A stretch of 64,000 nucleotides of DNA from positions 234,101 to 298,100 of the forward strand of contig JBAZUR010000001.1 of assembly GCA_041661305.1 (NCBI GenBank). The letters are read 5' to 3'. The DNA is from Minisyncoccota bacterium. Its GTDB lineage: Bacteria > Patescibacteriota > Minisyncoccia > Phycocordibacterales > VMEP01. Position 1 is the stretch's first letter. Every line of letters starts with the position of its first letter. Below the pieces are notes generated by a model that saw nothing but the letters and a program-made list of their open reading frames with translations, had not been told where the DNA came from and ran no database searches. Of this stretch, positions 4,304 to 47,792 are shown in pieces. The position numbers and the translations under genes were made by a program.

Positions 4304-4393
4304 AAAATACCTCCTAAAAACATTGCGCAGTGCGACGGCACGAGCATAGTAAATTTTCAGCAGAAAATTATACGCGTTTTTGGGAGGTATTTT
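4304..4393 (+). repeat. Copy A of the dispersed structured repeat family (AGCA-loop element)
   Basis: Outer 18-bp inverted repeat AAAATACCTCCTAAAAAC / GTTTTTGGGAGGTATTTT. Core CATTGCGCAGTGCGACGGCACGAGCATAG. Inner hairpin AATTTTC-AGCA-GAAAATT followed by TATACGCG. Related copies lie at 22699-22788, 22090-22220, 47631-47717, 13700-13850 and 40760-40850. Confidence 0.7.
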
Positions 4394-9282: not shown

Positions 9283-9452
9283 TTGACACTATATATATAG
9301 AATGCTACAGTCTTTTAGGAAACGAGCTAATCGCTCTTTATCGAAATAACAGCTTTCCTGACCGCACCTCCCTTCCGCTCCATGGCTTGATGGGGCGACC
9401 GCGGTCAGCCCCCGCGCCTACCTCCCCCTTCCCTTTGGCGCGGGGTTTTTTT
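9283..9452 (+). ncRNA. Candidate small structured RNA with its own promoter-like element and intrinsic terminator. Its function is unknown.
   Basis: TTGACA at 9283-9288 followed about 17 nt later by a weak -10 (TACAGT). Then comes a roughly 130-nt noncoding GC-rich segment (about 65% GC in an AT-rich genome) with nested stems: CTGACCGC...GCGGTCAG, and CGCTCCAT-GGCTTG-ATGGGGCG. It ends in the hairpin CCCGCGCC..GGCGCGGGG plus a T7 run. There is no ORF. Confidence 0.4.
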
Positions 9453-9600
9453 ATTGTTTTGTCTAATGTAATCAGTAGCAACAAAACAATAATCCCGTAC
9501 CAAAAACATCTTTGTGGACCAAAAAAGAATAGCGGAACAAAAGGTTAAAAATAATCCTCTACCTAAATGTTCGTTTTTGGTATCGAGATATTTTTTCTTC

Positions 9601-12392: not shown

Positions 12393-12414
12393 CTAATATA
12401 TTTAAGAACATAAT

Positions 12415-12464
12415 CAACACATACACTATAATCTTGCTATAGCAAGATTATAGTGTATGTGTTG
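12415..12464. repeat. Perfect 50-bp palindrome (23-bp arms, TATA centre)
   Basis: CAACACATACACTATAATCTTGC-TATA-GCAAGATTATAGTGTATGTGTTG has exact reverse-complement arms. Confidence 0.9.
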
Positions 12465-12539
12465 AACCAAGTTTTTTGCCTAAATATTAAAAACAAGGCC
12501 ACCCGATATGGGTGGCAAATTCAAAACGTTGTTCGTGAT

Positions 12540-13618: not shown

Positions 13619-13699
13619 GAGAAGTGGTCACGCATAATTTTCTAAGGCTTTGCAAATTTTAATGGTCACAAGTCACTAAGTTTTTTGTAGCTAACCACT

Positions 13700-13850
13700 A
13701 CAGAGAACCGCGAGTACGCTTCGGTCACGGATAAATTTTTGCTAAAATTTTCCGCTACCCCGACTCGCGCCGTCACGCTCCGTCTTTCGATTCTCTGACG
13801 CGAGTAAAGTGATTTACTCGCTTAGGGTCGCAAAAATTGGGCTTTGCTAA
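13700..13850 (-). repeat. tRNA-Glu-proximal copy of the AGCA-loop repeat family, with an additional partial fragment at 13621-13665
   Basis: In minus orientation: CAGAGAATCGAAAGACGGAGCGTGACGGCGCGAGTCGGGGTAGCGG, then the hairpin AAAATTTT-AGCA-AAAATTT, then TATCCGTGACC...CGGTTCTCTG. The outer stem CAGAGAA/TTCTCTG resembles the tRNA-Glu T-stem. This copy is close to the one at 40760-40850. Confidence 0.6.
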
Positions 13851-13856
13851 TTTTTG

Positions 13857-13928
13857 CGACCCTACAGAGAATCGAACTCTGATTCCCGCCTTGAGAAGGC
13901 GGTGTCCTAACCGTTAGACGATAGGGCC
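13857..13928 (-). tRNA. tRNA-Glu (anticodon CUC)
   Basis: GGCCCUAUCGUCUAACGGUUAGGACACCGCCUUCUCAAGGCGGGAAUCAGAGUUCGAUUCUCUGUAGGGUCG folds as a cloverleaf with a 7-bp acceptor, D-arm, anticodon loop UUCUCAA and T-loop UUCGAUU. It resembles E. coli tRNA-Glu. CCA is not encoded. Confidence 0.8.
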
Positions 13929-21924: not shown

Positions 21925-22089
21925 AATTGGCCAATTATACCGTTTTTAATAAAAAAACGAAAATCATAATGATTTTTTTATAATTATTTATTATTAAGCT
22001 TTTGCATTAAAAAACACACATGTCCGCCCCTGCTGTAAAAGTCGCGCGTCAATGGACGGTCGTGCGACATGATTTCGCCTAAATCATAT

Positions 22090-22220
22090 TCTCGTGCCAC
22101 GCATAATTTCTTGCTAGAAATTAGCTCGGCCCCGACTCGCCTCGTCAGGCTCCGTCTCTCAATTGCTTCACATATCGCAATTGAGCGTCGCACTGCGCAA
22201 TGTTTTTTGAGGGGTATTTT
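22090..22220 (-). repeat. Copy C of the AGCA-loop repeat family (a longer variant)
   Basis: In minus orientation: AAAATACCCCTCAAAAAACATTGCGCAGTGCGACG, then an inserted hairpin CTCAATTGC..GCAATTGAG, then GACGGAGCCTGACGAGGCGAGTCGGGGCCGAGC, then the hairpin TAATTTCT-AGCA-AGAAATTA, then TATGCGTGGCACGAG. Confidence 0.6.
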
Positions 22221-22633: not shown

Positions 22634-22698
22634 ATACAAGTAACACTTTCAGTGGTATCTCGAAAAAAACCAAAGTCTATTGTATTCCTGATACCCCA

Positions 22699-22788
22699 GA
22701 GATACTATAGAAAGACATTGCGCAGTGCGACGGCACGAGCATAGCAAAAACTTAGCAAAGTTTTATGTGTGTCTTTCGATAGTATCTC
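22699..22788 (+). repeat. Copy B of the AGCA-loop repeat family
   Basis: Outer stem GAGATACTATAGAAAGACA / TGTGTCTTTCGATAGTATCTC. Core CATTGCGCAGTGCGACGGCACGAGCATAG identical to copy A. Inner hairpin AAAACTT-AGCA-AAGTTTT, which is compensatory relative to copy A. It is flanked by the direct repeats GTATCTCGAAAAAAA at 22663-22677 and 22779-22793. Confidence 0.7.
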
Positions 22789-22798
22789 GAAAAAAATC

Positions 22799-40603: not shown

Positions 40604-40675
40604 TTCCGGAGTAGCTCAGCGGTAGAGCGGTCGCCTGTTAAGCGATTGGTCACAGGTTCGAATCCTGTCTCCGGA
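40604..40675 (+). tRNA. tRNA-Asn (anticodon GUU)
   Basis: UCCGGAGUAGCUCAGCGGUAGAGCGGUCGCCUGUUAAGCGAUUGGUCACAGGUUCGAAUCCUGUCUCCGGAG has a 7-bp acceptor, D-arm GCUC/GAGC, anticodon loop CUGUUAA and T-loop UUCGAAU. CCA is not encoded. Confidence 0.85.
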
Positions 40676-40687
40676 GTTGCCAAAAGT

Positions 40688-40715
40688 AAGACGCCCCAAA
40701 AGGGCGTTTTTACTT
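40688..40715 (+). terminator. Rho-independent terminator after tRNA-Asn
   Basis: GACGCCCCAAAAGGGCGTTTTTACTTTTG. Confidence 0.6.
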
Positions 40716-40759
40716 TTGTTGCAACTCCGAGAGAGCAAGTGGCTTAAGCCACTTGCGTG

Positions 40760-40850
40760 CAGGATTCGAAAGCCGGAGCGCGACGGCGCGAGGCGGGGTC
40801 GCAGAATTTTTCAGCAGAAAAATATCTGTGACCGGACTGTCTCCGGAGCA
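40760..40850 (+). repeat. tRNA-Asn-proximal copy of the AGCA-loop repeat family
   Basis: GGATTCGAAAGCCGGAGCGCGACGGCGCGAGGCGGGGTCGCAG, then the hairpin AATTTTTC-AGCA-GAAAAAT, then ATCTGTGACCGGACTGTCTCCGGAG. The outer stem CCGGAG/CTCCGG reuses the tRNA-Asn acceptor sequence and ends with an exact 12-nt copy of the tRNA 3' end. Confidence 0.6.
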
Positions 40851-41109
40851 TTAAAAACAAAGCCGCCCTTCGTGGGCGTTTTTTGTTTTTAACTACTTGG
40901 TGCGGGATTCAAACCGAAGGCGCCTAAAAATAAGGAGTGGAACGACTATATTTTTAGTGCGTTTCGAGGCTTTGCGAGAGGCGAATCCCGTCTTATTTAT
41001 CCGTGGCCGAATCCAGTTCTCCGGAAATATTCTAAATCTTTGCTTTAGGTAGCCAACTTTTTTAACCTAAATATGGTCCCAAATTTTGGTATACTTCATA
41101 TAAGAATCT

Positions 41110-47630: not shown

Positions 47631-47717
47631 TTTTTCCCTTAAAAAACGCGCATATCCGCCTGCTGGCGGATTGCTATGCTCGTATCGCCATACTGCGCAA
47701 TGTTTTTTAAGGGAAAA
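47631..47717 (-). repeat. Copy D of the AGCA-loop repeat family
   Basis: In minus orientation: TTTTCCCTTAAAAAACATTGCGCAGTATGGCGATACGAGCATAG, then the hairpin ATCCGCC-AGCA-GGCGGAT (GC-rich stem, same AGCA loop), then ATGCGCG, then the outer stem partner TTTTTTAAGGGAAA. Confidence 0.7.
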
Positions 47718-47792
47718 ATCTAGAGTTTTTAAGAAAAAAATTATACGTGTTTTAAAAAAGCAAAAATAAAAAATTGTTGATATAATTCACCT

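Follow-up and report, generated by a model that had tools for sequence, protein, structure and literature searches.

What kind of genetic unit recurs between the genes of a bacterium as a hairpin whose stems change from copy to copy but always pair? This question is raised by a 64-kb stretch of a Minisyncoccota genome (contig JBAZUR010000001.1; the whole analysed stretch, at its full length, is called the window). From its sequence alone, an original prediction had recognized six intergenic copies, labelled here A to F, of an element with an AGCA-loop hairpin, and had taken them for a transcribed family of small structured RNAs or for a MITE (miniature inverted-repeat transposable element). 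Our analysis supports this interpretation in part. The copies belong to a family that is widespread in genomes of the candidate phyla radiation (CPR, or Patescibacteria) and in metagenomes, and that behaves as a mobile element; its members are neither classical MITEs nor evidently small RNA genes. The explanation that we favour, with a probability of roughly one half, is that they are non-autonomous, very small, gene-less elements of CPR bacteria that integrate via a single-stranded hairpin mimicking their target. The earlier reading missed their link to transfer RNA (tRNA) and transfer-messenger RNA (tmRNA) genes, the nesting of one unit in another and the split of the family into two forms.

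All six loci lie where they had been placed, with D extending to 47718, and they represent two related forms: three copies are short (A, B and D) and three are long. The common architecture proposed for all six holds for the short copies; the other three belong to the long form, and the consensus quoted for the six blends the two. The short form is a three-way junction atop a long AT-rich stem. Its order is an outer stem P1, CATTGCGCAG, a 4-bp hairpin, GAGCATAG, an AGCA-loop hairpin with a bulged A, and ATRYGYG. The 4-bp hairpin reads GTGC-GACG-GCAC in A and B and GTAT-GGCG-ATAC in D, so that the P2 stem of D (GTAT/ATAC) represents a compensatory change relative to A and B. When folded as RNA, A, B and D all gave the same junction (z about -7 to -7.6): P2 starts with UGC/GCA pairing, continues through an internal loop of GCA opposite GA and ends in the 4-bp stem with its GACG loop, and P3 has about 10 bp with a single bulged A and the AGCA loop. 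A 24-nucleotide (nt) core is identical in A and B (two exact occurrences in the window, none expected). A covariance model built from 17 short forms gave A, B and D 87-92 bits, partly by construction, and beyond them no stretch of the window exceeded 23 bits. The outer stems of these three do differ, as had been claimed, and none of the copies is followed by a T-run.

In the long form, AAAGNCGGAG precedes a 4-bp hairpin whose loop is GACG, and GAGKCGGGG, an AGCA-loop P3 of greater length and GTGAC follow; both CATTGCGCAG and CATAG are absent from it. The three long forms in the window scored only 20-22 bits with the short-form model, yet they aligned to the same helices. Two of them, E and F, follow tRNA-Glu and tRNA-Asn genes, respectively. 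The third, an 88-nt unit named N, is nested in an older, decayed short form, and both had been counted together as the single copy C. N is inserted exactly between GACG and GCAC of the P2 hairpin of its host element, and two relatives (L028 and L029) have an intact GTGCGACGGCAC without insert at this site; thus, what had been called copy C comprises two elements, one sitting in a hairpin loop of the other. Beyond the six listed copies, a further degenerate unit follows F (Table 1). The AGCA loop, described as invariant, is indeed present in all window copies; across the family it relaxes to A-N-Y-A.

Compensatory covariation, the central claim of the original prediction, was borne out in both forms. 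In an alignment of 17 short forms (three from the window and 14 from other genomes), 96.8% of the cells were paired and 19 of 28 pairs changed on both sides. The covariation score was 0.573 compared to 0.192 in shuffled alignments, none of 500 shuffles reached it, and slid registers were only 31-56% paired; the short-form covariation is not due to chance. Divergent copies carried UGC/GCA, UUC/GAA, UAC/GUA, UUU/AAA, GCC/GGC and GAC/GUC at the base of P2, and these variants were found via the covariance model, outside any selection by the search pattern. For the long form with its flanks (104 sequences), P2a, P2b and P3 were 99.7%, 99.5% and 96.2% paired, with a score of 0.438 versus 0.163 in shuffles (0 of 500) and 35-45% pairing in slid registers. 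The conserved part of the element is its tip: P2, in which a G-N-A / G-A internal loop lies between 3 bp and 4 bp and GAC(U)G forms the closing loop, and P3 with its bulged A and A-N-Y-A loop. P1, the base of the hairpin, is variable, and the unpaired bases and both loops are near-constant across copies. Among 105 distinct sequences of the long-form core, 102 were 64 nt long. Readings of the conserved bases as a kink-turn, a hammerhead or an attC core site were rejected on inspection against the pairing supported by covariation.

The long-form helices contained 2,010 Watson-Crick pairs, 173 G·U and seven A·C (2,244 cells). All 102 sequences had G·U at pair 33-61, and pair 35-59 was variously G·U, G-C or A-U. 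Such an asymmetry between G·U and A·C cannot be maintained in a double-stranded palindrome; therefore, the long-form fold is selected on one strand, that with the polarity of the tRNA. The strand in question could be of RNA or of single-stranded DNA containing G·T pairs. Stems of the short form were almost purely Watson-Crick (247 Watson-Crick pairs, five G·U and two A·C) and so give no RNA-specific signal. The view that the covariation preserves RNA structure thus agrees with the long form, on one strand, and finds no such signal in the short form. A long-form variant observed in L028 (17270-17380) has, in place of the 4-bp P2 hairpin, a longer AGCA-loop hairpin (GCG ATGTTTTGTC AGCA GACAAAAC CGC), which points to modular exchange between P2 and P3.

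Both tRNA genes of the window have a long form after them. Metagenomes were scanned with the long-form core; of 127 long forms among the matches listed, 94 had a tRNA gene directly upstream on the same strand, with 26 anticodons represented, and the distance from the tRNA end to the motif was mostly 45-68 nt. Long forms lacking an upstream tRNA were mostly located at contig edges or after degraded tRNA ends. In addition, four copies followed a tmRNA-like 3′ end (L048, L074, L080 and L107). When run on full loci, ARAGORN called the upstream tmRNA gene for L048, L074 and L107; 400-nt snippets missed these three genes.

The tRNA-linked units have a common layout, namely the gene, a structured spacer, a reverse complement of the T-loop, T-stem and acceptor 3′ strand (ending in ...ATCG), the core (AAAG...GTGAC) and a direct copy of the gene end. 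The direct copy spans C56 in the T-loop to the 3′ end of the gene; it was exact over 19 nt in 20 of 90 copies and reached 21 nt, as did the reverse-complement arm. This 5′ arm truly reverse-complements the 3′ strand (AATCGAA versus TTCGATT in the tRNA) and is not a copy of the 5′ half of the tRNA, and the two arms covary through T-loop position 59 (A/T, T/A, C/G and G/C among 104 copies). The outer stems of E and F are thus not arbitrary; they are made from the 3′ end of the neighbouring tRNA and its reverse complement. CCA occurs in the direct copy only if the gene encodes it, and the copy runs on into the downstream terminator in L058 and L015; both features imply that genomic DNA was copied and not mature tRNA. 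A retro-mechanism with mature tRNA as the template was rejected because of the missing CCA. Whole units measure about 130-190 nt, and the upstream repeat was 35-146 nt away in 38 of the 39 copies in which one was detectable. Spacers are strongly structured (median z -3.7; 67 of 85 below -2). E and F themselves mimic only the acceptor and T-stem, without D or anticodon arms, and they were not called as tRNAs: ARAGORN and Rfam recognized only the two true tRNAs in the window.

Occupancy of tRNA genes is facultative and turns over fast, as indicated by 87 other tRNA genes in the same loci that carry no element and by the region after tRNA-Glu in L028, which holds a jumble of units unlike those of the window. 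Tandem arrays were found in L015 (two units), in L058 (two units 135 nt apart) and at the tRNA-Asn locus of the window, where F is followed by the degenerate unit. In L049, the 3′ end of tRNA-Arg(TCT) is present three times; its last copy stands after a canonical core, which in turn is preceded by about 1.1 kb with open reading frames (ORFs) and two tRNA genes, and the middle unit has a different core type. Longer, different cores between tRNA-derived flanks (a reverse-complemented T-arm on the left, a direct repeat on the right, ending ...GTGA) were also seen at L049 1600-1737, L015 4400-4520 (minus strand) and window 40903-41025, and several core families thus seem to share this integration architecture. 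A small insert of the type A(A)AGYGTACTCRCGG is located between GTGACCGA and the copied T-stem at 13708-13720 of the window and at many metagenomic loci (e.g., L034, L045, L074, L087, L094, L110, L125 and L142); it looks like a mini-hairpin module or its remnant. Directly downstream of E, at 13620-13700 (minus strand), we noted a fragment like the 3′ half of P3 (...GAAAATTATGCGTGACC), presumably the remnant of a further unit in the tRNA-Glu array.

Variation in copy content between strains had been suggested as a check for mobility, and differences between close relatives were detected for three units. We compared the window with three relatives (L028, L029 and L030), whose GreA is about 90% identical and whose contigs align through the B/C region. 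A block of about 155 nt containing B is absent from all three, in which the stop codons of greA and of a 112-aa ORF nearly abut at this position; B is a recent insertion. The outer element of C is present in L028 and L029 and its site is empty in L030, and the site of N is empty in L028 and L029 as described above. Empty sites for B, outer C and N show that the elements move, so the MITE alternative of the original prediction was right about mobility, though the elements are not classical MITEs, given that conserved terminal inverted repeats are lacking. Nesting is not limited to C: L020 has an insert of about 85 nt in P3, and L080 has a GC-rich palindrome in the AGCA loop. Persistence was observed as well. 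Copy A occupies an orthologous site in L014 (about 78% nucleotide identity, flanking proteins 81-96% identical), and the two copies differ by changes on both sides of P1 and of the pair closing the P3 loop. Outer stems like those of A and D also occur at non-orthologous loci in other genomes, and at least the inner P1 therefore travels with the core. The possibility that these stems are pre-existing hairpins or terminators of the target was rejected because they recur at such loci and have no T-run after them. Contigs whose flanking proteins are identical matched the window at 99.6-100% and were uninformative on gain or loss. L026, which represents the same population in an independent assembly, starts at the equivalent of window position 4352; the break lies within A, and fragmentation of short-read assemblies by the repeats would have this effect.

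The genomes of CPR bacteria are tiny, with few mobile elements believed to reside in them. A scan for the short-form core, covering one genome per species, yielded 24 loci, of which about 17 were in CPR genomes and all of these had the full architecture. The carriers are labelled Paceibacterota/Parcubacteria, Nomurabacteria or Saccharibacteria; GreA of the window has its closest named homologues in Paceibacterota. The remaining matches were in other, mostly GC-rich phyla, lacked the hairpins and represent chance. The search pattern had 12 bases in the P2 hairpin and the window copies have 11, and therefore the genome of the window itself was not among the matches, while sister variants were recovered. 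The long form was found at more than 118 metagenome loci among the matches listed. In viral contigs neither form was found, the single match being due to chance. Several loci hold two or three copies within 8 kb, and all copies are intergenic. Units of about 90-190 nt carry no genes, and about eight of them fill roughly 1-2% of the window, as estimated from the list of its parts. In a short-form sub-family (L001, L003, L007, L008, L009, L010 and L013), the outer stem is longer and has a conserved internal loop, with ...CTCGTYGCAGGYGTA... opposite ...TAYRCCAARAAAGAG...; three of its copies adjoin tRNA-Thr genes, in either orientation.

The statement that no known RNA family fits the elements proved accurate. 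At the gathering threshold of Rfam 15, only the two tRNAs matched anywhere in the window, and no match was obtained to hammerhead, twister, pistol, hatchet, HDV-like, SRP, 6S, tmRNA or Y RNA-like families; permissive scans over A and F returned only weak generic-hairpin or terminator matches far below threshold. No description of the family was found in the literature, searched by concept and by sequence string, and it is apparently undescribed.

The neighbourhood of the units was searched for an enzyme. Clustering of neighbours showed that the recurrent families look like housekeeping families, reflecting synteny around tRNAs. Pfam analysis of the 140 nearest ORFs identified MiaA-type IPP transferase, pseudouridine synthase, ParB, SmpB, EF-Ts and comparable families; the 25 most frequent families included neither an integrase nor a transposase. 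Among these nearest ORFs there was also no reverse transcriptase linked to units and no HUH family. A motif scan of the 1.1-kb unit in L049 revealed no recognizable recombinase ORF.

We propose the following scheme, in which the single-stranded circle, the exchange of a single strand, the crossover point and the enzyme are inferred. For a transient phase, a unit would be a single-stranded circle of the same polarity as the tRNA. Within it, the reverse complement of the target-derived segment, rc(T), would pair with that segment, T, forming a stem that mimics the duplex of the target gene and presents the core at its tip. A recombinase acting in trans would recognize the core and exchange one strand within the T-loop sequence, and replication would resolve the product. 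The T of the element would then complete the tRNA gene, the displaced original 3′ end would come to lie after the core, and repeated events would generate tandem arrays. Integration in this manner has been described for integron attC cassettes and for the attP(+) hairpin of CTX-phi. The short form carries the core on an AT-rich stem and spreads to further intergenic sites, and older copies receive units in their hairpin loops as well. The observed order of T, spacer, rc(T), core and T is what would be expected from a folded single-stranded circle and one strand exchange in the T-loop. The scheme also explains why units are strictly oriented and form arrays, why the fold is specific to one strand, why the repeats have DNA-level features and why cargo is occasionally present. 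Copy B provides a parallel: its 15-nt repeat is followed by 29 nt, the reverse complement of the first seven nucleotides of the repeat, the core and the second copy of the repeat, i.e., the layout of the tRNA-linked units in a recent insertion.

Several observations weigh against this scheme. There was no recombinase in or beside any unit examined; a tyrosine-recombinase motif occurred in two of 769 ORFs, neither of them inside a unit. No excised circle or junction was observed. At least 26 tRNA-specific arm pairs on near-identical cores would need frequent re-tailoring of both arms, and an extra hairpin interrupts the reverse-complement arm of E and F. No target duplication surrounds N in the P2 loop, which fits a simple hairpin-loop insertion better than the tRNA scheme. 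Retention of A over about 22% nucleotide divergence with compensatory changes suggests selection in place. Arm tailoring, the duplication-free insertion of N and the retention of A are thus left without explanation. Strict terminator criteria were passed by 19 of 90 spacers and by three of 90 shuffled ones, and on these figures the notion that the spacer is always a terminator was rejected. The short form shows no strand asymmetry. Finally, the invariant G·U, the A-N-Y-A tetraloop and the G-A internal loops are typical RNA features, and the selected strand could therefore be RNA and not DNA.

The same features are the basis of another reading, in which the elements are functional structured RNAs and mobility is secondary. 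The long form would be a tRNA-like minihelix (the acceptor stem stacked on the T-stem, with the T-loop replaced by a 64-nt junction), made by tRNA read-through, and might signal processing, act as a decoy or bind a protein; in the short form, this module would occur within mRNAs or as a small RNA. The excess of G·U on the sense strand (173 versus 7), the fixed length, the near-invariant unpaired bases, the G-N-A / G-A loop, the constant co-orientation of the long form with the tRNA, the conservation of A at its orthologous site and a slightly higher stability of sense over antisense folds are all consistent with it. However, terminator-like hairpins flank F on both sides and enclose no promoter-like site (although promoters in CPR bacteria may deviate from the consensus), and many copies occupy intergenic gaps of 2-45 nt that leave no room for a promoter. 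Where neighbours are co-directional, orientations are mixed, with eight copies sense and four antisense, the latter being short forms antisense to operons in gaps of 21-108 nt. These findings weigh against the predicted family in so far as its members would be independently transcribed small RNA genes. Element-free tRNA genes, fast gain and loss, nesting and decayed copies also fit this reading poorly, and a reverse-complement arm that copies T-loop bases in place of the tRNA 5′ strand, like the repeats that enter a terminator (L058 and L015), is a DNA-level signature for which an RNA function gives no explanation. We consider the RNA reading, although it is the main alternative, unlikely overall. 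Both it and mobility could hold if an RNA copy takes part in the movement. Another proposal, RNA-level mobility, in which a small structured and possibly catalytic RNA enters exposed hairpin loops of other RNAs (T-loops, or the P2 and P3 loops of other copies) and is fixed in DNA via reverse transcription and recombination, would explain why insertions are found in loops of hairpins, namely that of P2, the AGCA loop of L080 and the T-loop position, and why RNA-like motifs include an invariant G·U next to the 3′ junction. It is very improbable, considering that the repeat lacks CCA unless encoded and can enter a terminator, that the tRNA gene remains intact and uninterrupted, and that neither a linked reverse transcriptase nor a match to a ribozyme family was found.

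Two further explanations place the origin of the units in DNA. They might be leftovers of integrase-borne genomic islands, with the repeat as a displaced tRNA fragment (attR) and the core as an attP arm that remained after gene deletion. Textbook islands in tRNA/tmRNA genes are recognized by a regenerated target and a displaced 3′ fragment that starts in the T-loop (PMC4383910), and tandem arrays and one unit with cargo agree with this idea. It is nevertheless improbable, as nearly all units are tiny (see the repeat distances above), no integrase lies within or beside them, a normal attR has no reverse-complement copy (up to 21 nt) of the tRNA 3′ end, and the core is also found away from tRNAs, in the short form and the nested unit; a double-stranded attP arm would show neither the 173:7 wobble asymmetry nor covariation. 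Passive palindromes, REP-like (repetitive extragenic palindrome) or terminator-like hairpins whose stems are kept perfect by template switching (quasi-palindrome correction), could account for the nearly pure Watson-Crick stems of the short form, in which 95 double changes were counted against three single ones, and for reverse-complement arms that look like palindromized tRNA ends. They cannot explain near-invariant unpaired bases and an exact length of 64 nt across hundreds of loci, a fixed G·U and the alternation of G·U, G-C and A-U, specificity for tRNA and tmRNA genes, precise insertions, or short forms without T-runs, and we give this explanation hardly any credence.

Integration via a single-stranded target-mimicking hairpin remains the explanation that we prefer, and if it is true, the elements could in principle be re-aimed at any sequence, which would be of interest for genome engineering. 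A more far-reaching version, which we regard as doubtful, is a new recombination system in which the 64-nt core serves as a recognition and catalytic scaffold and the reverse-complement arm guides the unit to the T-loop and 3′ end of tRNA and tmRNA genes. Integration of gene-less cassettes would then be programmable, carried out by a host enzyme or by the core acting as a ribozyme between GTGAC and CGA, beside the invariant G·U, and would provide a means of cassette capture at tRNA genes in reduced CPR genomes. If the selected strand is RNA, the family would instead be a large class of structured RNAs with a fixed 64-nt architecture and no match in the searched libraries and literature. In practical terms, the elements fragment assemblies, their duplicated tRNA 3′ ends are read as att sites by island-finding tools, and they mark fast-evolving hotspots beside tRNA and tmRNA genes.

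Table 1. Positions of the elements and associated features in the window (rc, reverse complement; MFE, minimum free energy; bits refer to the 17-sequence short-form model).
Feature	Position	Strand	Details
Element A, short form	4304-4393	+	P1 AAAATACCTCCTAAAAAC / GTTTTTGGGAGGTATTTT; junction core ~4321-4376; MFE -37.4 kcal/mol, z -7.6; 91.6 bits
Element E, 3′ arm	13695-13723	-	CGA, small hairpin remnant AGCGTACTCGCGG, direct copy of tRNA-Glu T-stem and acceptor 3′ strand TTCTCTGTAGTGG
Element E, 64-nt core	13724-13787	-	AAAGACGGAG...CCGTGAC; 19.7 bits
Element E, 5′ arm	13788-13831	-	rc of tRNA-Glu acceptor 3′ strand GCGACCCTA, hairpin AGCGAGTAAATCACTTTACTCGCGT, rc of T-stem/T-loop CAGAGAATCG
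tRNA-Glu(CTC) gene	13856-13928	-	Target/anchor of E; ARAGORN and Rfam
Outer C, 3′ remainder	22007-22097	-	GCACGAG, rearranged hairpins, partial P3 and P1 3′ arm
Nested long-form unit N, inside C	22098-22185	-	Hairpin CTCAATTGC...GCAATTGAG, core AGACGGAGCCTGACGAGGCGAGTCGGGG..AGCA..TGCGTG; 21.8 bits
Outer C, 5′ part of decayed short form	22186-22220	-	AAAATACCCCTCAAAAAACATTGCGCAGTGCGACG; in L028/L029, absent from L030
Direct repeat at B, upstream copy	22655-22669	+	15 nt, GTATCTCGAAAAAAA; second copy 22782-22796 overlaps 3′ arm of B
Element B, short form	22699-22788	+	P1 GAGATACTATAGAAAGACA / TGTCTTTCGATAGTATCTC; 87.2 bits
tRNA-Asn(GTT) gene	40604-40677	+	Target/anchor of F; ARAGORN and Rfam
Terminator-like hairpin	40688-40710	+	Spacer between tRNA-Asn and F
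Element F, 5′ arm	40724-40768	+	rc of acceptor 3′ strand ACTCCGAGAG, hairpin GCAAGTGGC-TTAA-GCCACTTGC, rc of T-stem/T-loop CAGGATTCG
Element F, 64-nt core	40769-40832	+	AAAGCCGGAGCGCGACGGCGCGAGGCGGGGTCGCAG..AGCA..CTGTGAC; MFE -62.4 kcal/mol, z -6.4
Element F, 3′ arm	40833-40850	+	Direct repeat of tRNA-Asn 3′ end CTGTCTCCGGAG, identical to 40665-40676
Second terminator-like hairpin, after F	40864-40878		
Degenerate/variant third unit of tRNA-Asn array	40903-41025	+	Stem CGGGATTC.../...GAATCCCG, different interior, then TATCCGTGGCCGAATCCAGTTCTCCGGA (long-form 3′ end and another partial tRNA-Asn 3′ end)
Element D, short form	47631-47718	-	P1 TTTTTCCCTTAAAAAAC / GTTTTTTAAGGGAAAAA; 90.1 bits

With regard to neighbouring genes, A is located between divergent genes, 72 nt upstream of a CorA-family gene (Pfam CorA), B lies between the convergent 112-aa ORF and greA, and D is antisense to both adjoining genes. 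Several other structured features were noted in the window. A near-perfect palindrome of 52 nt at 12414-12465 (TCAACACATACACTATAATCTTGCTATAGCAAGATTATAGTGTATGTGTTGA) scored weakly (22.7 bits) on both strands with the short-form model; it has no P2 and is probably unrelated. The hairpin at 9497-9583 (plus strand) has a base, GTACCAAAAAC...GTTTTTGGTA, that resembles P1 of A, and a different interior; it may be a decayed copy or belong to another element family. A GC-rich segment of about 120 nt within an AT-rich intergenic region (9330-9455, plus strand) ends in a strong terminator-like hairpin, CCCCGCGCC...GGCGCGGGG, followed by T7. It could be an unannotated structured RNA, and a permissive Rfam scan of it gave only weak matches far under threshold. 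Outside the window, ARAGORN called a tRNA with anticodon TTA ('tRNA-Stop') in L075 (1016-1091, minus strand), possibly a suppressor tRNA or an indication that a codon is reassigned in this CPR contig.

Comparison with known systems places the family near hairpin-site cassettes and tRNA-integrating elements. Integron attC sites undergo recombination in the form of folded single strands, one strand only, and their fold on one particular strand outweighs sequence (PMC3458562). The elements resemble integron cassettes in being small units with one orientation and a fixed entry site, empty or with cargo, and they resemble attC in that the site is a hairpin whose 3′ arm beyond the crossover derives from the target. 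A fold specific to one strand is present here too, as the 173 G·U against seven A·C on the tRNA-sense strand of the long form demonstrate, a result compatible with single-stranded DNA or RNA. The distribution of conserved sequence is different: in attC the base (R and L boxes, RYYYAAC/GTTRRRY) is conserved and the tip varies, whereas here the tip is conserved and the base copies the target. AAC...GTT occurs incidentally in A and D, and B (GACA...TGTC) and most other copies lack these core sites. Unlike in integrons, entry occurs at the T-loop of tRNA and tmRNA genes and not at attI, the units are far smaller, and no intI-like gene was adjacent among the nearest ORFs.

Islands that integrate at tRNA and tmRNA genes are marked at their ends by a regenerated target and a displaced fragment (PMC4383910). 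Similar to these Islander islands, our units use the same class of target, regenerate the gene, leave a displaced 3′ fragment starting in the T-loop at the far end and form tandem arrays (PMC4383910). An intact target with a displaced direct repeat was found here from C56 to the 3′ end of tRNA genes and in the tmRNA cases. Such islands differ in being kilobases long, encoding a tyrosine integrase and having neither a reverse-complement copy of the tRNA end nor a covarying core.

Bacterial MITEs and palindromic repeats (REP/REPIN, Correia, RPE, ERIC and BOX) have conserved ends or a GTAG-tagged palindrome, and usually target-site duplications. The elements share with them that they are short, non-coding, intergenic, multi-copy and hairpin-forming, often co-transcribed and dependent on an enzyme in trans; presence/absence polymorphism, typical of MITEs, is evident from the empty sites in L028, L029 and L030. 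They differ in that the ends vary, the tip is conserved with covariation and some copies are strictly linked to tRNA or tmRNA genes. Outer stems are different in A, B, D and other genomes, only core-adjacent positions being semi-conserved. B is the sole short form with a clear repeat upstream, 15 nt long and set apart by a spacer, and the few other repeats of 10-13 nt are AT-rich and probably due to chance. As the original prediction held, the elements are not simple REPs: a three-way junction of ~57-64 nt stands on a variable stem and there is no GTAG-type tag.

Fungal mitochondrial GC clusters and double-hairpin elements are tiny GC-rich mobile hairpins in AT-rich intergenic DNA, with compensatory changes and nesting. 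Their sequence and hosts are unrelated to those described here, and tRNA-end mimicry is seen only here. Mobility through single-stranded or structured nucleic acid is known from palindrome-associated elements derived from IS200/IS605 and from the bridge RNA of IS110. Our elements are like these in having no conserved terminal inverted repeats and in containing sequence that pairs with the target, and unlike them in having no TnpA or DEDD recombinase gene nearby and a target-complementary segment that pairs with the adjacent target copy inside its own hairpin. No common target word was seen at the junctions, which lie after GACG for the nested unit and between ...TCG and AAAG and between GTGAC and CGA for tRNA-linked copies.

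CTX-phi offers a further parallel: its attP(+) is a forked hairpin of a single-stranded circle, with a stem that mimics dif, and host XerCD carries out one strand exchange. The proposed circle likewise has a target-mimicking stem, and both systems form tandem arrays and encode no recombinase of their own; CTX-phi is a 7-kb phage with one target, dif, whereas the elements are non-coding, 90-190 nt long and matched to dozens of different tRNA genes. The elements may be relatives of these known kinds, and there is a real chance that they are something more unusual. If the proposed mechanism is true, they would represent the third natural case, after integron attC and CTX-phi, of recombination by a folded single strand, with its logic inverted: a conserved tip on a base that copies the target.

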